From NCBI GenBank assembly GCA_020725605.1, contig DYER01000030.1, positions 83 to 64,082 of the forward strand: 64,000 nucleotides of DNA, given 5' to 3'. The notes beneath the pieces were generated by a model. That model did not search any database. It had not been told where the DNA came from and saw only the letters and a list, made by a program, of their open reading frames with translations. Every line of letters begins with the position of its first letter. Positions within the stretch are counted from its first letter, which is position 1. Positions 3,991 through 26,358 of the stretch are shown here, one piece after another. The stretch comes from Ammonifex sp. (GTDB lineage Bacteria > Bacillota > Desulfotomaculia > Desulfotomaculales > DYER01). The translations under genes and the position numbers were made by a program.

Positions 3991-4070
3991 GGGGCAACAC
4001 CTCCCTCGAATAAACGGAGTGGAGTGGGCCGCGCCAAACAAGAGCGGGCGTCCGCCCCCATCGGACTCCC

Positions 4071-4622: not shown

Positions 4623-4640
4623 GGTTTCGGCCTCCTCTTC

Positions 4641-4708: not shown

Positions 4709-4787
4709 GTTTGACGCCGTTTCGGCCGGCGTGGCGGGAAGCCCGCGCCGCGCCCCCGTCGGGCCGGCGCGGGCCCCGCCGCCCGGG

Positions 4788-5012: not shown

Positions 5013-5106
5013 TTCGGTCACACCCCCTTTCCTCGCGGGATGCGGGCGGCCGGCGCGCCGCCGGCTTTTACGGCCTGGTACCGGCACCGGCGGCGCGACG
5101 GCCTTC

Positions 5107-5174
5107 GACGAACAATCTTACCGACGTACCGGCACCGACGGTTGGATAGGTTTCCGAGGGAGAATTCCTTCGAC
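5107..5174 (-). repeat. Inverted-repeat intergenic element, copy R2 (decayed; tandem with R3)
   Basis: The minus strand reads GTCGAAGGAATTCTCCC-TCGGAAACCTATCCAACCGTCGGTGCCGGTACGTC-GGTAAGATTGTTCGTC. The core is conserved and the arms are degenerate. Confidence 0.65.
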
Positions 5175-5238
5175 GGAGAATTTTGCCGGCGTGCCGGTAC
5201 CCAAGGTGGGATGGCTTTCCGGGGCAAAATTCCCCGTC
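5172..5238 (-). repeat. Inverted-repeat intergenic element, copy R3
   Basis: The minus strand reads GACGGGGAATTTTGCC-CCGGAAAGCCATCCCACCTTGGGTACCGGCACGCC-GGCAAAATTCTCCGTC. It sits 1 nt downstream of the DUF1659 stop codon. Confidence 0.85.
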
Positions 5239-5239
5239 G

Positions 5240-5464
5240 TTACACCGCCGCCAGGGCCGCTTCGTTAACCCTGATGATCTGCACCGTGGGGTACCTGTGC
5301 AGGCCCGCCAGGGCCGCGGCCACGTCGAAGACCTCCTGGTCCGTCGCGGCCGGCTTCACCTGGTCGTAGTTGCGGCTCCGCAAGACCGGGTCGCCGCTGG
5401 CGTCGGTGCCGACCTGCACCCGCAGGCGGATGGTGGTTTCCAGGGGCGTCACCGCTACCGGCAC
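5240..5464 (-). CDS. DUF1659-family small protein
   Basis: ...TTIRLRVQVGTDASGDPVLRSRNYDQVKPAATDQEVFDVAAALAGLHRYPTVQIIRVNEAAL matches the DUF1659 pattern. The start is probably the GTG at 5464, 8 nt after GGGAGG. The ORF track starts at 5473. Confidence 0.75.
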   Translation of the reverse strand: MPVAVTPLETTIRLRVQVGTDASGDPVLRSRNYDQVKPAATDQEVFDVAAALAGLHRYPTVQIIRVNEAALAAV

Positions 5465-5696
5465 CGGGTTCACCTCCCTTCCACCCCGATTTTAGGCCCG
5501 GCGGCCCCGCCGCGGCAAAGGCCGTACCGCACGGGGTGCGGCACGCGCTCCCGGTCCGAACCGGGCCGCCGCCGGCCGGGCCCGGGCCTCGGACCCGCAC
5601 CGGGGGTGCGGCCGCCGGAGGGTACCGGGTGCGGCGGCCGGTCCGGGGGCGGACCGCCGGGGTCCGGACGCCGTACCCCTGTGGAAACGGAAAAAC

Positions 5697-5760
5697 GACC
5701 GGGAACTTGCCCCCGCTGGCACCGAGAACCGATGGGCCTTCCGAGGGCAAATTTTCCGTC
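5697..5760 (-). repeat. Inverted-repeat intergenic element, copy R4
   Basis: The minus strand reads GACGGAAAATTTGCCC-TCGGAAGGCCCATCGGTTCTCGGTGCCAGCGGG-GGCAAGTTCCCGGTC. Confidence 0.75.
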
Positions 5761-5793
5761 GAAAGAATCCCCGCCGGCACCCGGCACGGACAA

Positions 5794-5820
5794 ATAAAAA
5801 AGCCGGGCAAACACCCGGCA
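5794..5820 (-). terminator. Rho-independent terminator downstream of the acyl-CoA synthetase gene
   Basis: The minus strand reads GCCGGGTGTTTGCCCGGC followed by TTTTTTATTT, about 55 nt after the stop at 5877. Confidence 0.75.
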
Positions 5821-5876
5821 GGGACGATTGCTGGCTTTGCTGCTTTCTGCCACCCGACTTCTGCCGCGGGCCGCGG

Positions 5877-9333: not shown

Positions 9334-9469
9334 GAACGCCTGTTCCCTCCCCGGGTTCTGTCAACAGTGTACAACGACGTTATTTACATCGTCAACCGCG
9401 ACCATTCCCTCCAGGTACGGCCAGGAAAGTATCCTGATTCGAGCGTCGGCAGGGAACAGGACGACGGCT

Positions 9470-10204
9470 TCATCCGGCCCCGCCCACGAAATCGGCGTAG
9501 GCCCGGGCCACCTCGGCCGCGGGCCCCTGGAGGCGCACCTCGCCCCGGTCCAGCCAGAGGGCGTGGTCGCAGAGCTCTGCGACCTGTTTGGGGGCGTGGG
9601 TGACGAAGACGATGGTCGTGCCGCGCTCCTTGAACTCGCGGATCTTCTTGAGGCACTTCTCCTGGAAGGGGAGGTCGCCCACGGCCAGGACCTCGTCGAT
9701 GAGCAGGATGTCCGGGTCCACGTGCACGGCCACGGCGAAGCCCAGGCGCATGTACATGCCCGAGGAGTAGTTGCGCACCGGGTTGTCGATGAAGTCGCCC
9801 AGCTCGGCGAAATCGATGATTTTCTCCAGGCGGCCGTTGATCTCGCGCCGGGTGAGGCCCAGGATGGAGGCGTTGAGGTAGATGTTCTCCCGGCCGGTGA
9901 AGTCCGGGTGGAAGCCCGCGCCCAGCTCCAGGAGGGTGGAGACGCGGCCGTGCACCCGCACGCGGCCGCGGTTGGGGTAGAGGATGCGGCTGATGATTTT
10001 CAAAAGGGTGCTCTTGCCCGAGCCGTTGCGGCCGATGAGGCCCACGGTGGCGCCGCGGGGCACGCTGAGGCTCACGCCCTTCAGGGCCCAGAAGTCCTCG
10101 GCCTTCTGGCGGTACGGGAAGATGAAACGCTCCTTCAGGCTGTAAACCCGGTCGTGGTAGATGCGGAACTTCTTCCAGACGTCGACGACCTCGATGGCGT
10201 CCAC
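9470..10204 (-). CDS. Polysaccharide/teichoic-acid-type ABC exporter, ATP-binding protein (TagH/Wzt-like)
   Basis: 244 aa. Walker A GRNGSGKST, signature YSSGMYMRL, Walker B ILLIDE. Confidence 0.9.
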   Translation of the reverse strand: MDAIEVVDVWKKFRIYHDRVYSLKERFIFPYRQKAEDFWALKGVSLSVPRGATVGLIGRNGSGKSTLLKIISRILYPNRGRVRVHGRVSTLLELGAGFHPDFTGRENIYLNASILGLTRREINGRLEKIIDFAELGDFIDNPVRNYSSGMYMRLGFAVAVHVDPDILLIDEVLAVGDLPFQEKCLKKIREFKERGTTIVFVTHAPKQVAELCDHALWLDRGEVRLQGPAAEVARAYADFVGGAG

Positions 10205-10217
10205 GGCGCCACCCCCG

Positions 10218-11006
10218 CTAGATTTCCTCAGCCACGGCCCGCTGCCAGCGGGTGAACCCTGCCAGGGCCAGGAGCAGCGCCGCCAGGCCGCCCAGCCCGG
10301 TGCGCCAGAGCTGCCCCCAGTCGGGCCAGGCGCCGTAGAAGAAAAGGGCCCGGTAGGCGTCCACGATGGGGGTCATGGGGTTGAGGAGGAAGTAACCGCG
10401 CACCTCGGCCGGAATGGCCTCCAGGGGGTACAGGACCGGCGTGAGGAAAAACCAGGCCATGAGGGCGATGCCCACGATGTGCTCCAGGTCCCGGAAGTAG
10501 ACGTTGCCCACGGCCACCAGCAGGGCCAGGGCCGCCACCAGCAGGGTCTGTACAAAAAGCACCGCCGGAAAGGCCAGCAGGGCTGGGGTGAGGCGGATCT
10601 TGAAGGCCAGCAGGGCCGGGATGAGGATGCCCAGGCCGAAGAGGTAGTTGAACAGGTTGGCCAGCACCACCGAAAGGGGCAGGACCGCCCGGGGGAAGTA
10701 GATCTTTTTCACCAGGCCCGCGTTCTGCACCAGGCTGGCCGCGGCCTGCTGCACGGACTGGGCCAGGTAGTTCCAGGGCAGCAGGGCCACGAACAGGAAC
10801 ATGGCGTAGTTCTCCACCTGGACGCGCATGACGTGGGAGAAGACGGCGCTGTAGACCACGAGCATGAACAGGGGGTTGAAGAAGGTCCACAGAAAGCCCA
10901 GCACCGAGCCCTTGTAGCGGGCCCGCAGCTCCCTGGCCACCAGGTTGCGGAGCATTTCGCGGTAGAGGTAGATTTCGGCAATCTGCTGCCACAAGGCCGC
11001 CGTCAC
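10218..11006 (-). CDS. ABC-2 type exporter permease (TagG/Wzm-like)
   Basis: 262 aa multi-pass membrane protein. The N-terminus ...LRARYKGSVLGFLWTFFNP is typical of ABC-2 permeases. It sits directly upstream of the ATPase gene. Exact start uncertain. Confidence 0.85.
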   Translation of the reverse strand: MTAALWQQIAEIYLYREMLRNLVARELRARYKGSVLGFLWTFFNPLFMLVVYSAVFSHVMRVQVENYAMFLFVALLPWNYLAQSVQQAAASLVQNAGLVKKIYFPRAVLPLSVVLANLFNYLFGLGILIPALLAFKIRLTPALLAFPAVLFVQTLLVAALALLVAVGNVYFRDLEHIVGIALMAWFFLTPVLYPLEAIPAEVRGYFLLNPMTPIVDAYRALFFYGAWPDWGQLWRTGLGGLAALLLALAGFTRWQRAVAEEI

Positions 11007-11168
11007 CAGCCGGAAGAAGTCATCCCCGTGTTATTTCGGCGGGCGGCGGCCAATTCCCTTCCCCTCCCGCCGGGCCGAAACCTCCGGCCGCGGCCCCGGG
11101 GTCGGGCCTGGGGGCACCGCAGGGGGCCGCCCGGGACAGCAGAGGGGCACTGCCGTAAGGGTGGGCCG

Positions 11169-12143
11169 TCACCCACCGCCGCGGGCCCTGCGCAGTTCCT
11201 CGATGAGCAGGGGCAGCACCGCCCGCAGGTCCCCCACGATGCCCACGTCGGCCACCTCGAAGATGGGGGCGCCTGCGTTCTGGTCCACGGCGAAGATGAC
11301 CCCGGAACCCAGGAAGCCGGTGGTGAAGTGCATGGCGCCCGAGGCCCCGAGGCTCACGAAGAGCCTGGGGCTCACGGTCCTGCCGCTCTGGCCGATCATG
11401 AGTTCTTCGGGAATCCAGCCGCGGTCCACGGCCGGCCTGGTGCCGCCCACGGCCGCCCCCAGGAGGCGGGCCAGCTCCCAAACGGGTTCGAACCCGCCCG
11501 CGGCGTGGAGGCCCCACCCGCCGGCCACCACCACCTCCGCCGCCTCCAGACTGACGCCCGCGGGCTCCTCCTCCGCCATCTCCAGGGTGCGGGCGCGCAG
11601 CGATTCCTCCCGTAAGTCGCAGGGGACGCGCACCAGCTCGCCCCTGCGGCCGGAGTCCCCCTGGGGCACGGGGAAGACCCCGGGCTTGACCGTGGCCATC
11701 TGGGGGTTCCGGAGGCAGACGTATTCCCAGAGGGTACCCCGGCCCAGACCCGGCACCACCTGCACCAGGCGCCCTTCTTCGTTAACGTAAAGGTCCACGC
11801 AGTGGGCCGTGAGCCCGGTGCCCAGTCTGGCCGCCACCCGGGCCGCCAGCTCCCGGCCCAGGGTGGTGGCCCCCAGGAGAATGACTTCGGGGCCGTGTTC
11901 CCCGGCCAGCCGGGCCAGCAGGTCCGCGCAGGCGTCGCTCTGGTAAAGGCGCAGCAAAGGGTGGTCCACCAGGTAGACCTTCTCCGCCCCGTGGGCGAAG
12001 AGCTCCCCGGCCGCCTCCTCCACCCCGTGGCCCAGGAGCACCGCGGCCGGTACGGCCCCGAGGGCCGGGGCCAGTTCGCGGGCCTTGCCCAGGAGTTCCA
12101 GGGACACCGGCAGCAGCCGGCCCCGCCTCTGTTCGGCCCACAC
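11169..12143 (-). CDS. etfA: Electron transfer flavoprotein, alpha subunit
   Basis: ETF alpha FAD-binding C-terminus (...AVGGTRPAVDRGWIPEELMIGQSGRTVSPRLFVSLGASGAMHFTTG...). The start is reassigned to the GTG at 12143, 6 nt after GGAG. The ORF-track N-terminus (to 12239) translates repeat R5. Confidence 0.9.
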   Translation of the reverse strand: MWAEQRRGRLLPVSLELLGKARELAPALGAVPAAVLLGHGVEEAAGELFAHGAEKVYLVDHPLLRLYQSDACADLLARLAGEHGPEVILLGATTLGRELAARVAARLGTGLTAHCVDLYVNEEGRLVQVVPGLGRGTLWEYVCLRNPQMATVKPGVFPVPQGDSGRRGELVRVPCDLREESLRARTLEMAEEEPAGVSLEAAEVVVAGGWGLHAAGGFEPVWELARLLGAAVGGTRPAVDRGWIPEELMIGQSGRTVSPRLFVSLGASGAMHFTTGFLGSGVIFAVDQNAGAPIFEVADVGIVGDLRAVLPLLIEELRRARGGG

Positions 12144-12153
12144 CCACAGCTCC

Positions 12154-12221
12154 GACGGGGAATTTTGCCTTCGGAAGGCAATCCGGTTGCCGGCACCGGT
12201 GGGTTGGCAAAATTTCCCGTC
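12154..12221 (+). repeat. Inverted-repeat intergenic element, copy R5
   Basis: GACGGGGAATTTTGCC-TTCGGAAGGCAATCCGGTTGCCGGCACCGGTGGGTT-GGCAAAATTTCCCGTC. It fills the etfB-etfA spacer. Confidence 0.9.
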
Positions 12222-12235
12222 GTCTCGCGCCACGC

Positions 12236-12982
12236 TCACAGCACCCCCAGTTCCTTCAGCCTTGCAACGGCCTTCTTCACGGCCTCCTCCGGGGGACCGG
12301 AGAAAATCTCCTTTCGGCGGCCGAATTCTTTCGTGAGCTCGCGGACCAGGCGCGTGGGAGAACCCTCAAGGCCCACCAGGCCGGGGTCCAGGCCGAGGTC
12401 CTCCGCGTTCCAGACCGTGATCTCTTTCCCGGCGGCGGCCATGATGCCCCAGACCGTGGGCAGGCGGGGCGCGTTGATCCCCTTGACCACGGCCACGAGG
12501 GCCGGCAGCCGCACCTCGACCCTCATGTGGCCGTGCTCCAGGGCCCTTTCCGCCAGCAGCCGGTCCGGGGCCGGGGCCTCCAGCCTCCGCACGTGGGTCA
12601 CGCAGGGCACCCCCAGGAATTCGGCCAGCTGGGGCCCCACCTGCCCCGTGGCCCCGGTGGCGGACTCGTTCCCGCACAGCAGCAGGTCGAAGGGACCCAG
12701 GCGCCTGATGCCGTGGGAAAGGGTGCGGGCCGTGGCCAGGGTGTCGGCCCCGGCGAAGCGCTCGTCGCACAGGAACACGGCCCGGTCCGCGCCCGCAGCC
12801 AGGGCCTCTTCCAGGGCGCGCCCGGCCGGCGGCGAGCCCATGGTGAGGGCCGTCACCCGGCCCCCGAACCGCTCCTTGAGGCGCAGGGCCTCCTCCAGGG
12901 CGTGCCGCTCCAGGGGGCCGATGGCCGACCGCCCGGGCTCTGCCCCGTCCCTCACCCTTCTGACGCACACTATGAGCTCCAT
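12236..12982 (-). CDS. etfB: Electron transfer flavoprotein, beta subunit
   Basis: Internal ATG at 12982 of ORF 12236..13777. The 248 aa product MELIVCVRRV...LLLCGNESATGATGQVGPQLAEFLGVPCVTHV... matches ETF beta. Confidence 0.9.
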   Translation of the reverse strand: MELIVCVRRVRDGAEPGRSAIGPLERHALEEALRLKERFGGRVTALTMGSPPAGRALEEALAAGADRAVFLCDERFAGADTLATARTLSHGIRRLGPFDLLLCGNESATGATGQVGPQLAEFLGVPCVTHVRRLEAPAPDRLLAERALEHGHMRVEVRLPALVAVVKGINAPRLPTVWGIMAAAGKEITVWNAEDLGLDPGLVGLEGSPTRLVRELTKEFGRRKEIFSGPPEEAVKKAVARLKELGVL

Positions 12983-14115
12983 TACCTTACGATGCTGCCC
13001 CCGATGATGACCTTCATGACCTGCTGGGTGCCGGCCGCGGCCAGGAGCTCCAGCCCGTCCCTGAGCCTGCGGATGACGTGGTACTCGGGCGTGGTGCCGC
13101 AGGCCCCCAGAACCTCCACGGCCTTTGCGGCCACGTCGTTGGCCACATACACGGTGTAGAGCTTGGCCCTGGCGATGTCGGCCCCCGCGTCCCTGGGGCT
13201 CTTCCCCTGGTCCAGGAGCCAGGCCGCCTTGTAGGCCAGCAACCGGCCCGCCTCGATGCCCACGTTCATGTCCACCAGCATGAACTGGATGGCCTGCAGG
13301 TCCGCGACGGGCCTGCCGTACAGCCGGCGCTCCTTGGCGAACCTGAGGGCCGCCTCGTAGCTCCCCTGGGCCACGCCCAGGGCCACCCCGGCCACGCCGG
13401 TCCGGCCCACGGCGGCGATGGCCGCAAGGGCCGCGGCCAGGCCCCGGCCTTCCTGGCCCACCAGGTTCTCCTTGGGGACGCGGCACCCGGTAAAGGCCAG
13501 CTCGCTGACCGGGATGGAGCGCAGGCCCGCGTGCTTCTCCCTCCTGGGGGCCTCGAAGCCCGGGGTCCCCTTTTCCACCAGGAAGGCGTTGAACTTGTCG
13601 TCGGTTCTGGCCACCACCACGACCAGGTCCGCCACTTCGCCGATGGTGATGAAGACCTTGCGGCCGTTGAGCACCCACCCGTCCCCATCGGCCCGGGCCG
13701 TGGACTGCATGGCCGTGGGGTCCGAGCCGCCGGTGGGCTCGGTCACTGCCGTGGCGATGAACTTCTCGGCCCGGCACAGGGCGGGGAGGTATTTCCTCTT
13801 CTGGTCCTCGGTGCCCGCGGTCTCCAGGATGTAGATGCCCATGGGGGCCACCTGGAGGAAAAAGCCCAGGGGCGGGTAGACCCTGGAGACTTCCTCGATG
13901 GCGATCATGCGCGCCAGGTGGCCCATACCCGAGCCGCCGTATTCCGGCGAGGTGACGATGCCCACCAGGCCCAGCTCCGCGGTGCGCCGCGCCTGTTCCA
14001 GGGGAAACTCGCCCCTCTCGTCAAGTTCCGCGGCCCGCGGGGCCAGCTCCGCTTCGGCAAACTCCCGTACCACGTTCCTCAGCATTTCCTGCTGTTTGGT
14101 GAGACCGAAGTCCAC
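12982..14115 (-). CDS. Acyl-CoA dehydrogenase
   Basis: ACAD motifs (...TEPTGGSDP..., ...FAKERRLYGRPVADLQAIQFMLVDM...). The GTG at 14115 lies 7 nt after AAAGGAGGTG. Confidence 0.9.
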   Translation of the reverse strand: MDFGLTKQQEMLRNVVREFAEAELAPRAAELDERGEFPLEQARRTAELGLVGIVTSPEYGGSGMGHLARMIAIEEVSRVYPPLGFFLQVAPMGIYILETAGTEDQKRKYLPALCRAEKFIATAVTEPTGGSDPTAMQSTARADGDGWVLNGRKVFITIGEVADLVVVVARTDDKFNAFLVEKGTPGFEAPRREKHAGLRSIPVSELAFTGCRVPKENLVGQEGRGLAAALAAIAAVGRTGVAGVALGVAQGSYEAALRFAKERRLYGRPVADLQAIQFMLVDMNVGIEAGRLLAYKAAWLLDQGKSPRDAGADIARAKLYTVYVANDVAAKAVEVLGACGTTPEYHVIRRLRDGLELLAAAGTQQVMKVIIGGSIVR

Positions 14116-14187
14116 GCTCCCCCACCTCCTTTCAAGAATTTCTCCGCCTTCCGGCCTTTTCCTGCCGGCCCCCCACTGTGCCACGGC

Positions 14188-15390
14188 TCACAGCACCTGG
14201 AAGACGGCGCACTTCAGGTAATACGTCTCGGGGGCCGCGGGCAGGATGGGGTGGTCGCGGGCCTGGCGGCGGAGCTCCACCAGGCGCAAGACGCGTCCGG
14301 CGTCGGCGGCGGCCGCCATGACCACCGCCAGGAAGGAGGCCTCGTCCAGGTGGTAGGAGCAGGAACAGGTGACCAGAAAGCCCCCCGGCCTCAAGAGCTT
14401 CATGGCCCGCAGGTTGATCTCCTTGTAGCCCCGGACGGCCCCGGGCAGGGCCTCCCTGGACTTGGTGAAGGCCGGCGGGTCCAGGATGACGAGGTCGAAC
14501 TTTTCTTGTGCCGCGGCCAGGCGCCGCAGCTCGTCGAAGGCGTTGGCCGCGTAAAAGCGGCAGCGGTCCGCCAGTCCGTTCAGGCGCGCGTGTTCCGCGG
14601 CCAGTTCCACCGCCGCGGGCGCGATGTCCACGCCCACGACTTCCCGGGCCCCGAAGAGGGCCGCGTGGAGGGCGAAGGCCCCGGAATAGCAGAAGGCGTC
14701 CAGCACCCGGGCCCCGGGGGCCAGGTCCTTCAGGGCCAGGCGGTTTTCCCGCTGGTCCAGGAAAAACCCTGTTTTCTGGCCGCGGGCCAGGTCCGCCGCG
14801 AAGCGCAGGCCGTGTTCCACGAAGGTGACGAGGGGGTCGAAGTCGCCGTACAGGTGGCCGGTGCGGAGCTCCAGGCCCTCCAGGAGGCGCACGTTGACGT
14901 CGTTGCGCTCGTAGATGCCCCGGGGTTGCAGCAGTTCCACCAGCACCTCCACGAGGAGGTCCTTGAACCGGTCCATGCCCAGGGCCAGGGTCTGCAGGAC
15001 CAGGTAGGGGCCGAAGCGGTCCACGATCAGGGCGGGCAGGAAGTCGGCCTCGCCGAAGACGAGGCGGCAGGCCTCGGCCCTGGGGGCCACCCGGCGGCGG
15101 TACTCCAGGGCGGCCGCGATGCGCCGGCGAAAAAAGTCCCGGTCCACCCGCTCCCCCGGGTCGCGGGTGAGCAGGCGGACCAGGATCTGGGAGGCGGGGT
15201 TGGCGTAGCCGCGGCCCAGAAAGCGGCCCCGGGCGTCCACCACCCGCACCAGGTCTCCGGGCGCGAATTCCCCCTCGATCTCGGCCACCTCGGTGGCGTA
15301 AACCCAGGGGTGGCCGGCGGCCACGCGGCGGTGGCGTCCGGGGAGCAGCCGCACGGCCGGCTCGGCGCCCCTGACGAAAGCGGAGGCCAA
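14188..15390 (-). CDS. Class I SAM-dependent rRNA methyltransferase with PUA domain (RlmI/YwbD-like)
   Basis: 400 aa. The N-terminus ...GHPWVYATEV...GDLVRVVDARGRFLGRGYANP is PUA-like. The C-terminal part has the SAM motif VLDAFCYSGAF and DPPAF. Confidence 0.85.
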   Translation of the reverse strand: MASAFVRGAEPAVRLLPGRHRRVAAGHPWVYATEVAEIEGEFAPGDLVRVVDARGRFLGRGYANPASQILVRLLTRDPGERVDRDFFRRRIAAALEYRRRVAPRAEACRLVFGEADFLPALIVDRFGPYLVLQTLALGMDRFKDLLVEVLVELLQPRGIYERNDVNVRLLEGLELRTGHLYGDFDPLVTFVEHGLRFAADLARGQKTGFFLDQRENRLALKDLAPGARVLDAFCYSGAFALHAALFGAREVVGVDIAPAAVELAAEHARLNGLADRCRFYAANAFDELRRLAAAQEKFDLVILDPPAFTKSREALPGAVRGYKEINLRAMKLLRPGGFLVTCSCSYHLDEASFLAVVMAAAADAGRVLRLVELRRQARDHPILPAAPETYYLKCAVFQVL

Positions 15391-15393
15391 GCC

Positions 15394-15927
15394 TCAATCC
15401 CCCCTGGTGGGCAGGTCCGCCAGGCCCAGCAGCTCCAGGATGGCCCGGCAGAAGGCCGGGAGGTCCTCGGGCGTCCGGGAGGTGACCAGGTTGCCGTCCA
15501 CCACCGCCGCGGCGTCGATGTACTCCGCGCCGGCGTTGACCAGGTCGTCCTTGATACTGGCGAAGCACGTGGCGCGCCGGCCCCGCAGCAGCCCGGCCGA
15601 GATCAGGATCTGGGGGCCGTGGCAGATGGCCCCCACCACGCGGCCGGCCTCGTGCATGGCGCGCACGAAGTCGACCATGGCGGGCACGCGGCGCATGCGG
15701 TCCGGGGCGAAGCCGCCCGGCACGATGACGGCGTCGAAGTCCTCGGCCCGGCACTTCTGCACCGCCAGCTCTTCTTTTACGGGGTACCCCAGCTTGCTCA
15801 GGTAGACCTCCTGGCGGCCCGGGCCCACCACCGTGACCCGGCAACCCGCCTCTTTAAAACGCAAAACAGGATACCATAACTCAAGTTCCTGATAGTCGTC
15901 CTCCACCAGGACCGCCACCCTCTTCAA
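15394..15927 (-). CDS. DJ-1/PfpI family protein (intracellular protease/amidase type)
   Basis: 177 aa. ...DAVIVPGGFAPD... and the nucleophile elbow AICHGPQIL. Confidence 0.85.
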   Translation of the reverse strand: MKRVAVLVEDDYQELELWYPVLRFKEAGCRVTVVGPGRQEVYLSKLGYPVKEELAVQKCRAEDFDAVIVPGGFAPDRMRRVPAMVDFVRAMHEAGRVVGAICHGPQILISAGLLRGRRATCFASIKDDLVNAGAEYIDAAAVVDGNLVTSRTPEDLPAFCRAILELLGLADLPTRGD

Positions 15928-17237
15928 GTCGCTCCCCCCTTCCCCGTCAGGCGCTCGGCCCGTTCCGCTATTTCCGCGAACAGCCTCTCTTCGTCCACGG
16001 TCAGTACCGCGCGGTTCTCCATGACGATGCGGCCGCCGACCACCACGGTGACCACGTCCGGGCCCCGGGCCGCGTACACCAGGTGGGCCGGGACGCTGTG
16101 GCGGGGCGTGAGGTGGGCCTGGGCCGTGTCCACCAGGATGAAGTCGGCCTTCTTCCCCGGCTCCAGGCTTCCGATGCGGTCGGCCAGCCCCAGGGCCCGC
16201 GCGCCGTTGATGGTGGCCATTTCCAGCACCCGGTGGGCGGGCAGCACCGTGGGGTCCCGCCGGGCCACCTTTTGCACCAGCGCCGCGGCCCTCATTTCCT
16301 CGAACAGGTCCAGGTTGTTGTTGCTGGCCGCGCCGTCGGTGCCCAGGGCCACGTTCACCCCGGCATCCAGGAGCCGCGCCACGGGCGCGACGCCGCTGGC
16401 CAGCTTCATGTTGGACTCGGGGTTGTGGGCCACGCTCACCCCCCGCGCGGCCAGGAGAGCCACGTCGTCATCGTCCAGGTGCACGCAGTGGGCCGCCAGG
16501 ACCGGGACCCGAAACAGCCCGGTCCGCTCCATCAACCGCACCGGGCTGCACCCGTAACGGGCCCGGATGTCGGCCACCTCGCCTTCCGTCTCGGACAGGT
16601 GGATGTGCACACCCACGCCCAGGCGCGCGGCCTGGTCCCGCACCCTTTCCAGGTAGTCCGGCGGGCAGGTGTAGGGCGCGTGGGGCCCCAGCATGCAGGT
16701 GAGGCGGCCCTCCCCGGCGCCGTGGAACTCCCGCACCAGGGCCACGCCGTCTTCCAGGGCCCGGTCGGCGCCGGGCGCCACGCCGATGAGGCCCCGGGAA
16801 AGGCTGGCCCTGATCCCGGCGTCCAGCACGGCCCGGGCCGCCTCCTCCATGTGGAAGTACATGTCGGCGAAGGCCGTGGTGCCGGAGCGTATCATTTCCA
16901 CGCAGGCCAGGAGCGTGCCCCAGTAGACGTCCTCGGGCTCCAGGCGCGCCTCCACCGGCCAGATCCTGGTCTGGAGCCACTCCATCAGGGGGAGGTCGTC
17001 GGCGTAGCCCCGGAAGAGGGTCATGGCGGCGTGGGTGTGGGCGTTGACCAGTCCCGGCAGCAGCACCAGGCCCCGGCCTTCGATGACGCGGTCGGCCCGG
17101 AAATCCTCCGGCACGCTCCCCGGCGGCCCCACGTGGATTATGGCGTCGCCGCGCACGGCCACCTCGCCCGGATCGTAGATCGTACCCCGGGGGTCCATGG
17201 TGAGGACCGTGGCCCCCCTTACCAGCAGATTACCCAT
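15924..17237 (-). CDS. mtaD: 5'-methylthioadenosine/S-adenosylhomocysteine deaminase (amidohydrolase)
   Basis: 437 aa. ...LLPGLVNAHTHAAMTLFRGYADDLPLMEWL..., HLSET, ...GTDGAASNNNLD... Confidence 0.85.
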   Translation of the reverse strand: MGNLLVRGATVLTMDPRGTIYDPGEVAVRGDAIIHVGPPGSVPEDFRADRVIEGRGLVLLPGLVNAHTHAAMTLFRGYADDLPLMEWLQTRIWPVEARLEPEDVYWGTLLACVEMIRSGTTAFADMYFHMEEAARAVLDAGIRASLSRGLIGVAPGADRALEDGVALVREFHGAGEGRLTCMLGPHAPYTCPPDYLERVRDQAARLGVGVHIHLSETEGEVADIRARYGCSPVRLMERTGLFRVPVLAAHCVHLDDDDVALLAARGVSVAHNPESNMKLASGVAPVARLLDAGVNVALGTDGAASNNNLDLFEEMRAAALVQKVARRDPTVLPAHRVLEMATINGARALGLADRIGSLEPGKKADFILVDTAQAHLTPRHSVPAHLVYAARGPDVVTVVVGGRIVMENRAVLTVDEERLFAEIAERAERLTGKGGAT

Positions 17238-17255
17238 TCCGGCACCCCCGTCTTC

Positions 17256-17320
17256 GACGCGGAATTTTGCCGCGGAAGGCTATTCGGTCCTCGGCAGCGA
17301 TGTTGGCAAAATTCCCCGCC
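17256..17320 (+). repeat. Inverted-repeat intergenic element, copy R6
   Basis: GACGCGGAATTTTGCC-GCGGAAGGCTATTCGGTCCTCGGCAGCGATGTT-GGCAAAATTCCCCGCC. It lies between the aldolase stop (17328) and the mtaD start (17237). Confidence 0.85.
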
Positions 17321-17327
17321 GGTCTCG

Positions 17328-18014
17328 TCATTCGGCGTTGCCCCGGGCCTGGCGGCCGTTGCCGGCCTGGCCGTAGGAGGTCAGGTATTCCTCGCGCAGG
17401 CTCGCCACCTCGGCGGCCTCCAGGGCCACGGGCTGTCCCATCATACAGGCCAGGACGTAGATCTGGGCCGATTTTTCCAGTACCCGGGCCGCCACGAAGG
17501 CCTCGCCCAGGTTGCGGCCCAGGGCCACCGCGCCGTGGTTGGCGAGGAGCACGGCGTTGACCCGGCCCAGGGCCGCCACCGCCCTTCTGGCCAGCTCCGC
17601 GGTTCCGGGCGGGGCGTAGTCCGCCACCGCCACTCCCCCGCCCAGGATCTGCACCATGTCCTCGACGATGGGCGGAATGCCCCGCCGCACCACGGCCAGG
17701 GCGCTGCACCACAGGCTGTGGGTGTGGATCACGGCGCCCGCGTCCGGCCGGGCCCGGTAGATGGCGAGGTGCATCCGCCATTCGGTGGAGGGGCGGCGCT
17801 CTCCCTCCACCACCCGGCCCTCCAGGTTCAGCACCACCACGTCCTCGGGCTGCATGCCGTCGTAACCCATGCCGCTGGGCGTGATGCACACCACCTCGTC
17901 CCGCGGCACCAGGCAGGAGAGGTTGCCCCAGGTGCCCACGACCAGGCCGCTCGCGGCCACCTTCTGGGCCACCTTAACCAGTTGTTCCTTGGCCTTTTCG
18001 GTTGCCAGGCCCAT
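17328..18014 (-). CDS. Class II aldolase/adducin-family protein (MtnB/Ald2/FucA-like)
   Basis: 228 aa. ...GTWGNLS...ITPSGM...EWRMHLAIY...VIHTHS... is a class II aldolase pattern. Confidence 0.8.
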   Translation of the reverse strand: MGLATEKAKEQLVKVAQKVAASGLVVGTWGNLSCLVPRDEVVCITPSGMGYDGMQPEDVVVLNLEGRVVEGERRPSTEWRMHLAIYRARPDAGAVIHTHSLWCSALAVVRRGIPPIVEDMVQILGGGVAVADYAPPGTAELARRAVAALGRVNAVLLANHGAVALGRNLGEAFVAARVLEKSAQIYVLACMMGQPVALEAAEVASLREEYLTSYGQAGNGRQARGNAE

Positions 18015-18021
18015 GGCGCCT

Positions 18022-19278
18022 TTATTCTTCTCCTCCTTCTCCCGCCAGGTAGGCTTCCTGCTCCGGGGTCAGCCGGTCCAGCTCGATGCCCAGGGAGGCC
18101 AGCTTGCGGCGGGCCACCTCCCGGTCGATTTCCGGCGGCACCGGGTAGACCCCGGGTGTGAGCCGCCGGCCGTTTGCGGCGAGATACCGCACCGCCAGCA
18201 GTTGCAGGGCGAAGGAAAGATCCATGATCTCCACGGGATGCCCGTCTCCCGCCGCCAGATTGACCAGCCGGCCCTCGGCCAGGAGGTACAGCCGACGCCC
18301 GTCCCGCAGCGCGAACTCCTCCACCCTGGCCCGCACCTGCCGCCGGGCCACGCTCAGGCGCTCGAGGTCCGGGATGCTGATCTCCACGTTGAAGTGACCG
18401 GCGTTGGCCAGCAGGGCCCCGTCTTTCATGCGCGCGAAGTGCTCGGCCCGCAGCACGTCGCGGCACCCGGTGGCCGTGATGAAGAGGTCGCCTTTTTCCG
18501 CCGCCGCCAGCGAGGGCAGCACCTCGAACCCGTCCATGTGGGCCTCCAGGGCCCGGAAAGGATCCACTTCGCAAACCACGACTCTGGCTCCCAGGCCCCG
18601 GCCGCGCAGGGCGATGCCGCGTCCGCACCAGCCGTACCCGCACACCACCACGGTTTTCCCCGCCACCAGAAGGTTCGTGGTGCGCATCAGCCCGGCCCAC
18701 ACCGATTCGCCCGTGCCGTAGCGGTTGTCGAAAAGGTATTTGCTGTGGGCGTCGTTGACCGCGATCATGGGAAAGAGCAGTCTTCCGGCCCCGGCCAGGG
18801 CCCTGAGACGCCGGAGGCCCGTGGTGGTCTCCTCGCAGCCGCCTATGACCCCGGCCGCCAGGTCGCGCCGCACGGTGTGGAGCAGGTGCACGAGGTCTCC
18901 CCCGTCGTCGATGATGAGGTCGGGCCCGGTGGCCAGGGTGCGCAGCAGGTGGTCGCGGTATTCGGCTTCGGTGGCCCCGCACCAGGCGTAGACCTTCAGG
19001 CCCTCCTCCACCAGGGCCGCGGCCACGTCGTCCTGGGTGGAGAGGGGATTGGACCCGGTGACGGCCACCTCGGCCCCGGCGTCCCGCAGGGCCAGGGCCA
19101 GCACCGCGGTCTTGGCCTCCAGGTGGATGCACACGGCCACGCGCCGGCCCCGCAGCACGTCGGCGCGGGCCATTTCCTCCCGGATGCCAGCCACCACCGG
19201 CATGTGGGCCCTGGCCCAGGCGATCTTTTCCCGGCCGCCGGGTGCCAGGCCGGGGTCGCGGATGAGAAAGGGTTCCAC
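18022..19278 (-). CDS. ahcY: Adenosylhomocysteinase
   Basis: 418 aa. ...GSNPLSTQDDVAAAL..., ...VVCGYGWCGRG..., ...GHFNVEI... Confidence 0.9.
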   Translation of the reverse strand: MEPFLIRDPGLAPGGREKIAWARAHMPVVAGIREEMARADVLRGRRVAVCIHLEAKTAVLALALRDAGAEVAVTGSNPLSTQDDVAAALVEEGLKVYAWCGATEAEYRDHLLRTLATGPDLIIDDGGDLVHLLHTVRRDLAAGVIGGCEETTTGLRRLRALAGAGRLLFPMIAVNDAHSKYLFDNRYGTGESVWAGLMRTTNLLVAGKTVVVCGYGWCGRGIALRGRGLGARVVVCEVDPFRALEAHMDGFEVLPSLAAAEKGDLFITATGCRDVLRAEHFARMKDGALLANAGHFNVEISIPDLERLSVARRQVRARVEEFALRDGRRLYLLAEGRLVNLAAGDGHPVEIMDLSFALQLLAVRYLAANGRRLTPGVYPVPPEIDREVARRKLASLGIELDRLTPEQEAYLAGEGGEE

Positions 19279-19430
19279 CGCTCTGTCAAAACCTCCTCAA
19301 TGAGTGTGGCCTGGGAATTCTCTGCCGATGCCAAAACCCGCCCGCACCTCGCGCGCGGGTGCCGGCGCCCGGGTCTGCCTCACGGCTCGGGGCTCCGCGG
19401 GGGCCGCCGCGGCCCCCCGATGCCGGGTCC

Positions 19431-20477
<1,047 letters not shown>

Positions 20478-20490
20478 GGTAGTCGCCTCC

Positions 20491-21264
20491 TCAGGCCTCG
20501 GCCAGGGCGCGGTGGCAGGCGCACTCCCGCTCCACGTCAAGGGCTTCAAGCGTGGCCGTGATCAGCCGCCTCAGGTCGGCGCCGTAGCCCTCCATGGCCG
20601 CCACCACCTCGGGGTGGGAAAGCCGGGCCGGCGTGACGCCGGCCGCGTAATTGGCCACCACGGCGATGGCGGCGTAGCAGATCTCTGCCTCGCGGGCCAG
20701 CACCACCTCGGGCACGCCCGTCATGCCCACCACGTCCGCCCCCATGTGGCGGAACATGCGGATTTCCGCCGGGGTCTCGAACCGCGGCCCCTCGGTGCAC
20801 ACGTAGGTGCCCCTCGGGTGGGCGGGCAACCCCAGTTCTTGCGCCTTCTCCCAGAGTACCCGGCGCAGCTCGGGACAGTAGGGCTCGCTCATATCCAGGT
20901 GCACCACCCGGTCGTCGTAGAAGGTCTGGGGCCTGCTGCGGGTAAAGTCCAGGAACTGGTCCACGAAGACGAAGTGCCCGGGCGCCATGTTCACATTCAG
21001 CGAGCCCACGGCCGCCGTGGCCAGAATGGCCCTCACGCCGAGGGCCTTCAGGGCCGCGATGTTGGCGCGGTAGTTGACCCGGTGGGGGGGCACCGCGTGC
21101 CCGGCCCCGTGCCGGTTGAGAAAGGCCACCTTCCGGTGCCGGAACCGGCCCACCTGCACCGTCACCACTCCGTAGGGCGTGCTCACCTCTCGCGCCGTCG
21201 CTTCTTCGAAGAGGGCCGGGTCGTAGACGCCCGTGCCGCCGATAACCGCCAGACCAGGGGCCAA
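20491..21264 (-). CDS. mtnP: S-methyl-5'-thioadenosine phosphorylase
   Basis: ...AVIGGTGVY...FLNRHGAGHAVPPHRVNYRANI...MSEPYCP...GTYVCTEGPRFETPAEI...GMT... The start is probably the TTG at 21264, after GAGGAGGAG. Confidence 0.9.
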   Translation of the reverse strand: MAPGLAVIGGTGVYDPALFEEATAREVSTPYGVVTVQVGRFRHRKVAFLNRHGAGHAVPPHRVNYRANIAALKALGVRAILATAAVGSLNVNMAPGHFVFVDQFLDFTRSRPQTFYDDRVVHLDMSEPYCPELRRVLWEKAQELGLPAHPRGTYVCTEGPRFETPAEIRMFRHMGADVVGMTGVPEVVLAREAEICYAAIAVVANYAAGVTPARLSHPEVVAAMEGYGADLRRLITATLEALDVERECACHRALAEA

Positions 21265-21433
21265 TTTGCGCTCCTCCTCTTCCGTGCGATTGGTCCCCAA
21301 TTCTATTCGCGGCCCCGGCCCCAACTCCTCGCGGACCCCTCATAACTTTGTTGCCGGCGGTGCAGGCTAATGCCGGCGGGACTCCGGGGTGGGGTTCCCT
21401 GACGCCTTCGGCCCCGACGGTGGTGCAAAGCCC

Positions 21434-21643
21434 ATGGCGAAAAAGGTAACCCAGAACGAACTGCTGGCCGTGGCATTGAAGCGCGCCCTGGAAATGGAGG
21501 AGTTCCGCCGGGCCAAGTACCACTACCTGGTCGGCGCGGTGACCGACGCGCGCCTCCGGGAGCTGATGGCCCAGTTCGCGGTCGTGGCCCGCCACCACGC
21601 CGCGGCCCTGCAGCAACTGATGAAGGAGCTGAACGTCAAGTGA
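21434..21643 (+). CDS. Small helical protein, Coat-F/ferritin-like half domain (69 aa)
   Basis: Internal ATG of ORF 21389..21643. The product is MAKKVTQNELLAVALKRALEMEEFRRAKYHYLVGAVTDARLRELMAQFAVVARHHAAALQQLM... Its stop overlaps the next start (GTGA). Confidence 0.5.
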   Translation: MAKKVTQNELLAVALKRALEMEEFRRAKYHYLVGAVTDARLRELMAQFAVVARHHAAALQQLMKELNVK

Positions 21644-22104: not shown

Positions 22105-22540
22105 GGAGCAGGTCCTCCCGCAGGGCGGCCAGCCAGCTCAGCACGGTGAAAACCATGAGGTCTACGGCCGCGCTCCGGATCTTGCTCCAGTGCTGGTAGA
22201 CCAGGGCACCGCTCTCCACCAGGAGGCATTCCACACTGCAGAAGAGTCCAGTCCAGACCAGGACGTTGAGGACCCGGGCCGCCCCGCCCCGTGGCAGGTA
22301 CATGCCGAAGAGGGTCCCCACGACCAACCCCGGCCCCAACGTAAAGAACAGCGAGGACCCGTAGAGCGCCACCACGGGGTCGTCTACGCGATACAGGCCG
22401 CCCCGGATGCCGGTGGTATCGACCAGCAACTGGAGGACCACCGCCGCCAGCCCGGTCCACCAGATCAGGGCCAGGCGGCGGCGGTCCGCGAGCAGCGCGA
22501 AGAGCAGCCACGAGAGAAAAAACAAAATTATCCAGGGCAC
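22091..22540 (-). CDS. Integral membrane protein (4-5 TM), family not recognised with certainty
   Basis: The GTG at 22540 lies 8 nt after GGAAGGAG. The product is (M)PWIILFFLSWLLFALLADRRRLALIWWTGLAAVVLQLLVD... Confidence 0.55.
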   Translation of the reverse strand: MPWIILFFLSWLLFALLADRRRLALIWWTGLAAVVLQLLVDTTGIRGGLYRVDDPVVALYGSSLFFTLGPGLVVGTLFGMYLPRGGAARVLNVLVWTGLFCSVECLLVESGALVYQHWSKIRSAAVDLMVFTVLSWLAALREDLLRAPP

Positions 22541-22745: not shown

Positions 22746-23846
22746 GTGCGGGTGGCCATTGTGGGCGCCGGGCCGGCCGGCCTGGCCTGCGCCATCGAGC
22801 TGGAACGTCGCGGCATCCAGCCCGACATCTTCGAGCGGCGGTACCGGGTCGGGCTGCCGCATTCCTTTCCCATGGTACTCCTCCAGCCCTTTTCCGCCGG
22901 CGGCGTCAGCGACCAGATGGTCTTTTTGCGGGATAGGCTCGGCATCCACCTGAATCCCCTTCAGCCCCTGGGCCGGATCGTGATGCACGGCCCCACCAGG
23001 AAGGCCGTGATCGGGGGGGCGCTGGGCTACATCCTGGAGCGCGGCCAGGGCCCGGACAGCGTGGAAAGCCAGCTCCTGCGGCAGCTCACCACGCCGGTGA
23101 CCTACAACCACCACGCCGACTACCGCAGCCTGGCGCGGGAGTACGACTACGTCGTGGTGGCCGACGGGCGCCCAGACGTGGCCCGCAGCCTCGGCTACTG
23201 GCAACCCCACGGCAGGGTTGCGGTGCGCGGGGCCGTCATTCTGGGCCGCTTCGAACCGCAGACCGTGCACATGTATCTGGACACCTCCTTCGCCCGGCAG
23301 GGGTTTGCCGTGGAGATCCCCTTCGGCCCGCACCACGCTTCCCTGCTGCTGATGGTGACGGGCATCAGGACCGACGAGCTCAACGACCACTGGGCCCGGT
23401 TCCTGTACCGCACCGGAAAGAGCCCCGAGATCGTGGAGACCTTCGAGTCCGAACACGAAACGGGCCTGGTCTCCCGCCGCAGCCACGGTAACCTGCTGCT
23501 GGCGGGCAACGCCGGCGGCTTCACCGAGACCTGCCTGGGCCTCGGCGTGTTCGCGGCCGTGGTGAGCGGGGTGCTGGCCGCCCGGGCCGTGGCGGAAGAC
23601 CGGGACTTCGAGGCCCTGGCGCGGCCCCTGGTCAGGCACGCGGAGCGCATGCACCTGCTGCGCGCGGCCCTGGACCGCATGGATAACGCGGATCTGGACC
23701 GGCTGGTGGGGGTCCTGGGACTTCCGGGAGTGAGGCACCTCTTCTACAACGCGCGGCTCAACCCCATGCGCCTGGTGCCCGCGGTTCTGGCCCTGGCCGC
23801 GCGCCGGCGGCGGATCGGACTGCGGGCCGCCCGCGGGGGGAAGTGA
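22746..23846 (+). CDS. FAD-dependent oxidoreductase (geranylgeranyl-reductase-like flavoprotein), paralog 1
   Basis: 366 aa. Dinucleotide-binding motif VAIVGAGPAGLACAIELERRG. The GTG start lies 8 nt after AAAGGGGG. Confidence 0.8.
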   Translation: MRVAIVGAGPAGLACAIELERRGIQPDIFERRYRVGLPHSFPMVLLQPFSAGGVSDQMVFLRDRLGIHLNPLQPLGRIVMHGPTRKAVIGGALGYILERGQGPDSVESQLLRQLTTPVTYNHHADYRSLAREYDYVVVADGRPDVARSLGYWQPHGRVAVRGAVILGRFEPQTVHMYLDTSFARQGFAVEIPFGPHHASLLLMVTGIRTDELNDHWARFLYRTGKSPEIVETFESEHETGLVSRRSHGNLLLAGNAGGFTETCLGLGVFAAVVSGVLAARAVAEDRDFEALARPLVRHAERMHLLRAALDRMDNADLDRLVGVLGLPGVRHLFYNARLNPMRLVPAVLALAARRRRIGLRAARGGK

Positions 23847-25069
23847 CCTTGCGGGTGGCGATCATAGGCGCGGGCGCGGCCGGCCTGGCCTGCGCCGTCG
23901 AGCTGCAGCGCCACGGCGTGGTCCCGGAACTCTTCGAGCAGCGGCCGCGGGTGGGTGAACTCTTCCCCCACGTGGCCGGAACCCTGCAGCTCTTCAACCG
24001 TCCGGTGGACGACCAGGTGCGGTACCTGCGCCGGGAGTTCGGCCTGGCCCTTACGCCCCTGGCGCCCATGCGGCGCATCCTCATGAAGACCCCCTACCGC
24101 ACCCGCGAGGTGCGCGGCCGGCTGGGCTACTTTTTCCTGCGCGGGCAGGACCCCGACTCGCTGGAGAATCAGCTGTGCAGCGCCGTCACCTCGCCCATCC
24201 ACTTCAACACCAGGGCCGACCACCGCTACCTGGCCCGCCGGTACGACTACGTAGTGGTGGCCACGGGCAACAACGAGGTGCCGGCGGCCCTTGGTTGCTG
24301 GCAGCCCCTGATGAAGGCCGTGGTGCGGGGGGCGGTGGTGCTGGGGGAATTCGACCCCTATACCATCGTCATGTGGGTCGACACCCAGTACACCAAGGGC
24401 GGCTACGCCTACCTGACGCCCTTCTCGGCCCGGCGGGCCTCGCTGGTGCTGAACGTGCCCGACGCCCCACCGGCGGCCGCCGACTACTACTGGTCCACCT
24501 TCTGGCGCGCGGAAAACCTGCGGTATCAGGTCGTGGAGGACTTTGTGTGGGAGCACTACTTCGGGTGGGTGTATCCCCATCGGGTGGGCAACGTGCTGCT
24601 GGCGGGAATCGCGGGCGGGTTCATGGAAACCTTCCTGGGTTTCGGGCTGCTGGGGGCTCTGAGGAGCGGGGTACTGGCGGCCCGCGCCATCGCCACCGGA
24701 CAGGACTACGAGGAACTGGTCAAGCCCCTGCGGCGCGAAATGCACCAGACCCTGGTTTTCCGCGAGTGGCTCAACCGGGCCACCAACCGCGACGTGGACC
24801 TGCTGGTGCGCGTTATTACTTCTCCCGGCCTCAGACAGCTTATCTACAACACCAACCTGGAGTGGATCAAGTGGACTGCCCGGAGCATGACCCTGTGGCG
24901 CCGGGTGGCGGACCGGCTCCGGCAATTGAGGGGGGCCGGTATTCCGGCGCGGGACCCTAAGCATCGTCCCGTACGCCCCGCAGCACCGCCACGCCCAGCA
25001 GAAAGGCCGGAAGGACCAGTTCCAGCACCAGGGCGAAGCCGGGAAAGACCCTGGCGAAGAATTCCGTGA
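23843..25069 (+). CDS. FAD-dependent oxidoreductase, paralog 2 (tandem duplicate)
   Basis: 408 aa. VAIIGAGAAGLACAVELQRHG, colinear with paralog 1. The start overlaps the upstream stop (GTGA). The last 45 or so codons are low-complexity and antisense to the convergent gene. Confidence 0.8.
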   Translation: MTLRVAIIGAGAAGLACAVELQRHGVVPELFEQRPRVGELFPHVAGTLQLFNRPVDDQVRYLRREFGLALTPLAPMRRILMKTPYRTREVRGRLGYFFLRGQDPDSLENQLCSAVTSPIHFNTRADHRYLARRYDYVVVATGNNEVPAALGCWQPLMKAVVRGAVVLGEFDPYTIVMWVDTQYTKGGYAYLTPFSARRASLVLNVPDAPPAAADYYWSTFWRAENLRYQVVEDFVWEHYFGWVYPHRVGNVLLAGIAGGFMETFLGFGLLGALRSGVLAARAIATGQDYEELVKPLRREMHQTLVFREWLNRATNRDVDLLVRVITSPGLRQLIYNTNLEWIKWTARSMTLWRRVADRLRQLRGAGIPARDPKHRPVRPAAPPRPAERPEGPVPAPGRSRERPWRRIP

Positions 25070-26063: not shown

Positions 26064-26228
26064 TTTTTTCGCCTCCGGGCAATAGTATCCGCCGCCCACG
26101 GACCGGCCTATGCCGGTAAGGCCCGCGGAGGGCACCGTCCCGGAGCGCGGCAGGGTGCGTCGGGTAATGGGGGGCCGCGCCGCGCCCCCCGGGAAAAAAG
26201 CGCGGCACGAAGGCCGCGCCGGCGAAAC

Positions 26229-26296
26229 GACGGGGAATTTTGCCTTCGGAAAGCCACGCGATTATCGGTACCGGTGGGTTGGCAAAATTCCCCGTC
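26229..26296 (+). repeat. Inverted-repeat intergenic element, copy R7 (best preserved)
   Basis: GACGGGGAATTTTGCC-TTCGGAAAGCCACGCGATTATCGGTACCGGTGGGTT-GGCAAAATTCCCCGTC. The two 16-nt arms are perfect reverse complements. Confidence 0.9.
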
Positions 26297-26358
26297 GAAC
26301 GGACGGACCGCCCTGCGTAGAAGGGCGGCCCGTGCCGAACGGATACCCGATTGTTAAT

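Follow-up and report, generated by a model that had tools for sequence, protein, structure and literature searches.

A 70-bp inverted-repeat family in an Ammonifex sp. contig is very probably a recently mobile MITE

The 64,000-nt stretch of Ammonifex sp. DNA analyzed here (contig DYER01000030.1, positions 83 to 64,082, hereafter the window) carries eight copies of a short repeat that is very probably a non-autonomous 70-bp DNA transposon, that is, a MITE (miniature inverted-repeat transposable element); we put the probability of this reading at roughly 0.9. The repeat is short and non-coding, is bounded by terminal inverted repeats and flanked by a duplication with a fixed length of 2 bp, and occurs as dispersed, polymorphic copies that have recently been gained or lost between close relatives. 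An initial annotation of the window had preferred a MITE-type non-autonomous mobile element to a riboswitch, a preference with which the mobility, the duplication and the missing RNA signature described below agree. As a mechanism we propose that a transposase from elsewhere in the genome would bind both ends of the element and that insertion would take place at a 2-bp staggered cut, leaving a 2-bp duplication of variable sequence. New copies would very often land at a distance of exactly 2 bp from the end of a resident one, always head-to-tail.

The arm sequence GACGGGGAATTTTGCC, with up to three mismatches allowed, occurs 13 times in the window, compared to a mean of 0.79 and a maximum of 4 in dinucleotide-preserving shuffles of the same sequence. 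At six sites of the initial annotation these matches are paired, with a distance of about 52 nt between them, and the two decayed sites align with the other copies. A covariance model (R1), comprising 28 copies from the window and from metagenome contigs, was searched against the whole window with filters off. Exactly the eight sites of the initial annotation were recovered, seven of them at full length (50–96 bits, E ≤ 4e-11). The full-length matches are located on the plus strand at 26226-26300 (the top score, 96.4 bits), 12151-12225, 17253-17324 and 53593-53667, and on the minus strand at 4637-4711, 5168-5241 and 5693-5763 (50 bits), while the match at 5114-5166 (minus strand) is partial, with 25 bits and E = 2e-4. 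Beyond these sites no R1 match with E < 0.1 is present anywhere in the window, which bears out the claim of an eight-copy family. The sense strand scores higher than the antisense strand at every site (50–96 versus 16–45 bits), which makes the strand assignment unambiguous and shows that the core is asymmetric and the copies are oriented. No further genuine interspersed family emerged when the window was searched for repeats in general, the other listings being GC-rich codon-bias matches within genes.

The element proper is 70 bp long, and individual copies span 66–71 bp. Its terminal inverted repeats measure 17 bp (CGACGGGGAATTTTGCC / GGCAAAATTCCCCGTCG), are perfect in the best copies, and enclose an asymmetric, non-coding core of about 36 nt with the consensus TTCGGAAAGCCATCCGGTTnTCGGnACCGGTGGGTT. 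The arms had initially been given as 16 nt; with the corrected arm of 17 nt the best copy runs from 26228 to 26297 and is 70 nt long. The proposed extension of the arms to CTTCG...CGAAG is not an inverted one, as the dinucleotides adjoining the arms on the outside are repeated directly. Among the copies of the window and of the closely related contig L173, which were not chosen by the search pattern, identity to the consensus is about 0.93 in the arms and about 0.78 in the core. Across 32 copies, 93.6% of the stem cells are paired. For intact copies the predicted fold is a hairpin of -30 to -40 kcal/mol (z = -2.7 to -5.7). The copy at 26228-26297, with a predicted RNA hairpin of -38 kcal/mol (z = -4.9), perfect arms and the top model score, is indeed the best-preserved one, as had been stated. 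The long imperfect hairpin suggested for the element is thus predicted for intact copies, whereas decayed copies have lost it and fold like shuffled sequence (4640, z = -0.1; 5107, z = +1.1; 53595, z = -0.6). The decay recognized early on at 5107 and 53596 is confirmed by the 5' truncation of the former, which retains 25 bits, and by two and three arm mismatches in the latter.

In a catalogue of 33 independent copies, from which orthologous duplicates had been removed, 19 are flanked by identical dinucleotides repeated directly just outside the arms, compared to 7.3% in a control of shifted flanks (binomial P = 7e-14). The duplicated dinucleotides vary (TT, AA, CC, TC, GG and CA) and do not represent a fixed target such as TA. 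Filled and empty sites could be compared in four clean pairs, each of which shows a net gain of 72 bp. The initial annotation had seen no clear target-site duplication, a statement that both the flanking dinucleotides and these pairs contradict. At the TC at 22116-22117 (GGTCCTC/CCGCAG) the window is empty, while L114 and L172, which are about 88–90% identical, have the arrangement TC-(70 bp)-TC. The TT at 19299-19300 is likewise empty in the window, and L173 (96–98% identical) contains a 70-bp copy there, just upstream of the AdoHcyase ribosome-binding site. Two further empty sites are found within the last codons of genes, at 18029-18031 in the AdoHcyase gene, where L173 holds an in-frame copy, and at 15938-15939 in the amidohydrolase gene, where both L042 and L173 hold one.

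Relatives with 85–98% identity show reciprocal presence and absence of copies at no fewer than, that is at least, nine sites, and the family has therefore been recently mobile; the mobile origin proposed in the initial annotation, for which empty sites in relatives were to be compared, is upheld by these filled and empty differences. Contig L173, an ENA metagenome contig that is 95.4–98.6% identical to window positions 9466-21472 (about 12 kb), contains five copies in 13.8 kb, two of which are common with the window (in etfA and between the aldolase and amidohydrolase genes) and three of which are absent from it. L114 and L172 contain a copy at a site that is empty in the window, and L098 and L148, with a mutual identity of 85–90%, differ at three sites involving five copies. 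L140 is 68–80% identical to window positions 3856-5505 and contains copies in the same spacer between the DUF2922 and amidase genes, in the opposite orientation, so that the insertions in the two genomes must be independent. Non-orthologous copies in different contigs are up to 96–97% identical (for example window 26228, L143 2211 and L114 1573), which points to shared, recently active subfamilies. Other copies are older. The decayed copy upstream of the DUF1659 gene (5696-5761) is probably orthologous to L140 1403-1476. At the 17256 site L043 (87% identical) retains a short relic with the arm variant CGGCGGGGAA, and because the window copy has the same variant, this insertion predates the split of both lineages. 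L042 was considered to represent the empty allele at 17256 and was downgraded, since an N-gap with duplicated flanks adjoins it and the sister contig L173 is filled. This gap (1957-2117 of L042, NCBI metagenome-assembled genome contig JBRAIK010000133) is flanked by a duplicated 60-nt stretch where L173 has the MITE; the repeat has probably broken the assembly at this point.

Adjacent copies are separated by a spacer of exactly 2 nt at a minimum of seven junctions, of which L098 and L140 have two each and L051, L144 and L079 one each; the pair 5171/5107 of the window adds another head-to-tail junction. All junctions examined are head-to-tail, and no inverted adjacent pairs were seen among them. 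In three of the four fully alignable pairs the core identity of tandem partners is 0.67–0.72, compared to a mean of 0.68 for random pairs. Because tandem partners are usually no more alike than random pairs, they appear to be separate insertions beside an existing end and not local duplications. Outside tandem pairs, resemblance of the flanks to the element's own ends was not significant (P = 0.09–0.15).

Copy-out-paste-in families other than IS30 generally generate longer duplications. Since the present repeat combines a 2-bp duplication with head-to-tail insertion beside existing ends, the mobilizing enzyme may be a transposase of the IS30 family or one that acts in a comparable copy-out-paste-in manner, an IS30-like assignment to which we give slightly less than even odds. 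IS30 itself produces 2-bp duplications and inserts beside its own inverted repeats; its junctions are of the left-end-to-right-end type only, which yields tandem dimers and head-to-tail arrangements in which 2 bp separate the ends (PMC9333248). The repeat differs from the IS30 family in its 17-bp arms and in that neither a transposase nor a full-length element was found with it, so that the link is one of footprints only. No transposase was recognized by Pfam among 20 open reading frames checked in the window and in repeat-rich loci, and no distant arm pairs enclosing a parent element were found.

Several points weigh against the MITE interpretation or its IS30-like extension. A perfect duplication is missing from 14 of the 33 copies, several of which are off by one base; decay could explain these cases. 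The head-to-tail statistic consists of about eight junctions, some of them from the same contigs. IS30-family ends are 20–30 bp long, and the 17-bp arms are shorter. An autonomous element or transposase with these ends was not found in the window or the retrieved loci. Finally, the metagenome copies were fetched with a pattern demanding exact inner arms, by which arm conservation among them is biased.

The initial annotation had placed all copies in intergenic spacers. This holds for six of the eight, while the copies at 12153-12222 and 53595-53664 lie within etfA and a radical-SAM gene, respectively. A single insertion amounts to 70 + 2 = 72 bp, or 24 codons, and in-frame copies within gene ends, each contributing 24 residues, were found twice in the window (in these two genes) and twice in L173. 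The coding insertions observed all lie close to the start or stop of a gene, only a few codons away. In etfA the copy comes after codon 5; the GTG start of this gene, at 12239, overlaps the stop of etfB. The open reading frame reads MSVAR-DDGKFCQPTGAGNRIAFRRQNSPS-ELWVWAEQRRGRL, in which DDGKFCQPTGAGNRIAFRRQNSPS is the 24-aa insert, and EtfA is 356 aa long with it. An 81%-identical EtfA ortholog (P0123) starts MAREVWVWAERRRGRL and lacks the 24-aa insert, others start MSMAKEVWVWSEQ, and EtfA relatives begin MAREVWVWAE. In the radical-SAM gene the copy follows codon 3 (start GTG 53587). Homologs found among 1.8 billion representative proteins start about 24 residues later with the motif MxxF.P.Y (e.g. 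MFKFPSY), and their own residues 3–7 align to positions of about 22–30 of the query. Because this gene has no alternative start downstream of the insert, the 24 residues are probably translated. In L173 the in-frame copies are situated a few codons before the stop, giving an AdoHcyase of 442 instead of 418 aa and an amidohydrolase of 461 instead of 437 aa.

Five of the six reading frames of the consensus are free of stops, which by our estimate from base composition has a chance of about 0.055 and is only suggestive. Together with the 24-codon size, it means that an insertion at a gene end adds a 24-residue peptide and does not destroy the gene. It is conceivable, though we consider it doubtful, that the 72-bp size and the five stop-free frames were selected, letting a coding-compatible MITE colonize the ends of essential enzyme genes, and that the arrays are the first natural record of IS30-style end-targeting by a miniature element. 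If so, the 24-residue module in EtfA, AdoHcyase, the MtaD-like deaminase and the radical-SAM enzyme would be an independent Bacillota counterpart of the palindromic elements of Rickettsia. A less probable addition to the MITE reading, and on balance an unlikely one, is that some copies have been co-opted and retained for a benefit that the RNA hairpin or the 24-residue peptide brings to the host, such as mRNA stabilization, decoupling of operon genes or service as a protein tag. The radical-SAM gene and etfA do retain old, decayed copies in frame, with their reading frames still open, and in the sporulation-linked DUF1659/DUF2922/amidase cluster the window and L140 have copies in the same spacers. 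However, persistence at protein termini is also predicted by neutral tolerance, the shared-spacer copies are oppositely oriented, the hairpins decay, and the number of stop-free frames is only marginally unusual.

Repetitive extragenic palindromes (REPs) and their paired forms (REPINs), which are spread as single-stranded palindromes by the REP-associated tyrosine transposase RAYT (a Y1/HUH enzyme) and leave no target duplication, resemble the present family in the stable hairpin, the mostly extragenic location, the frequent clustering and the occurrence of both orientations. Abundant extragenic hairpins in clusters are characteristic of these elements and of bacterial interspersed mosaic elements (PMC3733652, PMC2817692). 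Published REPs are 20–40 nt long, carry an unpaired GTAG or CGTC tag, have stems of 5–13 bp and loops of 2–20 nt, form mostly inverted dimers and show no duplication (PMC3733652). In contrast, the repeat described here is 70 nt long with a 17-bp stem and a loop of about 36 nt, has no unpaired GTAG/CGTC head or CCA tail (its terminal CGAC/GTCG is paired within the stem), and is flanked by a 2-bp duplication, and its adjacent copies are arranged head-to-tail and not as the inverted pairs by which REPINs are defined. A gene for a Y1 transposase was not encountered in the window or the retrieved loci, nor was a RAYT or other transposase gene bounded by the element's ends, as the initial annotation had suggested looking for, found there. 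Its REPIN-like alternative did not withstand these comparisons, and such an origin is very improbable. The CGTC-tagged REP superfamily was considered for the terminal CGTC and was ruled out by structure. Elements derived from IS200/IS605, moved as single strands and placed 3' of a short target of fixed sequence with no duplication, can also be small hairpin-forming repeats without coding capacity. Elements of the IS200/IS605 type lack both inverted repeats and duplications, whereas the ends here are true inverted repeats, the 2-bp duplication is present and no fixed tetra- or pentanucleotide occurs in the flanks; of the origins weighed, this is the one we regard as least probable.

A family of structured RNAs selected for their fold, whether cis-regulatory elements, small RNAs, terminators or processing sites, would account for the observations that intact copies fold far better than shuffled sequence (z = -4 to -5.7), that copies are found in untranslated regions and between operon genes, and that one copy abuts a ribosome-binding site. 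The orientation relative to flanking genes is mixed, though, with five window copies sense and three antisense, which confirms the early remark that both orientations occur and does not fit such a family. Decayed copies without the fold (z = -0.1, -0.6 and +1.1) argue in the same direction. Mismatches in the arms are mostly uncompensated, nine of the 17 stem pairs departing only by unpaired cells. Three core helices drawn by hand are each 80–86% paired, and in each of them one or two pairs have both partners changed. They are mutually exclusive, score about alike, and none stands out against shuffle and slide controls; the high pairing is due to repeated CCGG motifs. RNAalifold gave a poor consensus for the core, and no helix with convincing covariation was found in the covariation check. 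Rfam held no match, presence and absence differ in close relatives, and some copies are inside coding sequence. We therefore consider selection for an RNA fold scarcely more credible than an IS200/IS605 origin. Hairpins predicted in operon transcripts could alter mRNA stability or the translation of neighboring genes, and our results suggest that such RNA effects are by-products and not the reason for the element's existence.

With a MITE as the favored interpretation, the closest parallels are the Correia element of Neisseria and RUP of Streptococcus pneumoniae, bacterial MITEs of roughly 100–155 bp with a 2-bp duplication. Like these, the present family is short, non-coding and bounded by terminal inverted repeats, with a 2-bp duplication and dispersed, mostly intergenic copies in either orientation, forms long hairpins in transcripts and differs in presence and absence between strains. 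The duplication of Correia and IS630-type elements is a fixed TA, however, while that of the 70-bp element varies in sequence. Further differences are its size, its unrelated sequence, its host among high-GC spore-forming Bacillota, and the frequent head-to-tail pairs with a 2-bp spacer. Rickettsia palindromic elements (RPEs), whose in-frame insertions in coding genes were reportedly described by Ogata et al. in 2000, are likewise palindromic selfish repeats that are tolerated in frame within coding genes, to which they add a short peptide. RPEs are longer and have no 2-bp duplication, their sequence and host are unrelated, and the coding insertions observed in the present family are all only a few codons away from where a gene starts or stops. 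Some RPEs have been catalogued as CGTC-1 and CGTC-4 (PMC3733652).

The window has a G+C content of 68% and contains ordinary chromosomal genes of an uncultured spore-former, including those for FtsY, a spore germination permease, the germination protease Gpr, DUF1659 and DUF2922 proteins, a cell-wall amidase, EtfAB, an acyl-CoA dehydrogenase and methionine-salvage enzymes. The best public protein matches, with 96% and 89% identity, belong to metagenome-assembled genomes labeled Desulfotomaculales and Firmicutes, while named genera such as Desulfofundulus reach only about 63% protein identity. One protein of the window was looked up by its exact sequence and had no entry on record. A pattern of the arm and core start was searched against 185,579 species-representative genomes, a collection from which the host genome is absent, and gave no true copy; the 41 matches were single chance matches in unrelated taxa, none with a second arm. 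In a metagenome scan, true copies were found only in a dozen contigs of 61–70% GC from a handful of samples, which together provided more than 25 further copies. Viral contigs yielded seven chance arm matches and no element, and plasmid BLAST searches gave short chance matches only. No Rfam family matched at gathering thresholds in the whole window, and a permissive search around the best copy returned weak sub-threshold matches only. A literature search for the arm sequence had no match. A protein search with the concatenated six-frame pseudo-peptides found one protein, from the known L114 site, which indicates that the family is rare in public data. The initial annotation had recognized no named repeat or Rfam family, and the Rfam, plasmid, phage and literature searches are in accordance with this.

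The family has thus not been described before and is restricted to a narrow lineage that is poorly sampled. It is an ordinary MITE, a known type of selfish DNA, and does not constitute a new kind of system. It stands out somewhat by being very small, by its clear footprints of the IS30 type and by its repeated insertion in frame at the ends of conserved enzyme genes, in which it recalls the Rickettsia palindromic elements. The ends, size, duplication and covariance model now define a searchable repeat family for a high-GC lineage near Desulfotomaculales. It also explains odd 24-residue insertions in conserved proteins that are propagated by gene callers, such as P0001 (461 aa) and P0122 (360 aa). 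Since genomes with 97% identity differ in their insertions, the element is a sensitive marker of strains. In addition, it is a likely cause of broken assemblies, of which the gap in L042 is an example. If the mobilizing enzyme is indeed IS30-like, the arrays would provide a natural data set on end-targeted insertion.

The intact 70-bp copy at 26228-26297 (plus strand) has perfect 17-bp arms and the duplication AA at 26226-26227 and 26298-26299. It is located in the 3' untranslated region of ftsY, antisense to this minus-strand gene, between the stop at 26359 and an intrinsic terminator at 26220-26199. The terminator (26199-26220, minus strand) consists of GGCGCGGCCTTCGTGCCGCGC and then a T-run and lies directly downstream of the MITE, and a second GC-rich hairpin (26300-26335) is found between the ftsY stop and the MITE. 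The etfA copy at 12153-12222 (plus strand) has the duplication TC/TC and is also present in the close relative L173/L174. The copy at 17255-17321 (plus strand, 67 nt) has one mismatch per arm and is situated in the spacer of the class II aldolase and MtaD-like amidohydrolase genes, antisense to both; its ortholog is intact in L173 and a relic in L043. The old, decayed copy in the radical-SAM gene (53595-53664, plus strand) has two and three arm mismatches and the duplication TT/TT. This gene apparently starts at GTG 53587, with the ribosome-binding site GGGGGAG, and not at the ATG 53434 of the open reading frame list; an extended -10-like sequence, TGGTATAAT, is located upstream of it at 53511-53521 (plus strand).

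The other four copies are on the minus strand. The copy at 4640-4709, with the duplication AA/AA in element orientation and a decayed hairpin (z = -0.1), lies in sense orientation between the stop of the DUF2922 gene and the gene for the cell-wall amidase, whose ribosome-binding site GAGGAGG starts 2 nt past the arm of the copy and is followed by the ATG at 4621. The start given for the amidase in the open reading frame list, GTG 4658, overlaps the MITE, and the ATG at 4621, preceded by GAGGAGG, is likely the true start. The copy at 5171-5239 is the upstream member of the head-to-tail pair and was inserted at the AA of the TAA stop of the DUF1659 gene, where the duplication AA regenerates the stop. 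The decayed, 5'-truncated copy at 5107-5168 abuts it head-to-tail with an AA spacer. The old, decayed copy at 5696-5761 (66 nt, four mismatches in each arm, duplication TT/TT) is found between the terminator of an AMP-binding enzyme gene and the DUF1659 gene. Just upstream of this copy, after the AMP-binding enzyme gene, there is a terminator-like hairpin at 5795-5830 (minus strand), GCCGGGTGTTTGCCCGGC then TTTTTTATTT.

Hairpins with the inner arm GGAATTTTGCC...GGCAAAATTCC and unrelated cores were encountered at L047 1934-2002, L072 1375-1451 (in a contig of 44% GC), L062 10925-10995 and L152 4979-5031. These may be distant relatives of the family or by-products of the palindromic search pattern. 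Genes for putative restriction endonucleases of the Uma2 family are located near MITE copies in unrelated contigs (L173 12377-13045 and L079 890-1570), which is probably coincidental. Apart from the repeat family, the window contains two adjacent paralogous genes on the plus strand (22746-23846 and 23843-25069) that give a 1100-nt period and share 72–76% nucleotide identity over several stretches; the same region of the syntenic contig L044 contains FAD-oxidoreductase-like genes (DAO, a faint match).

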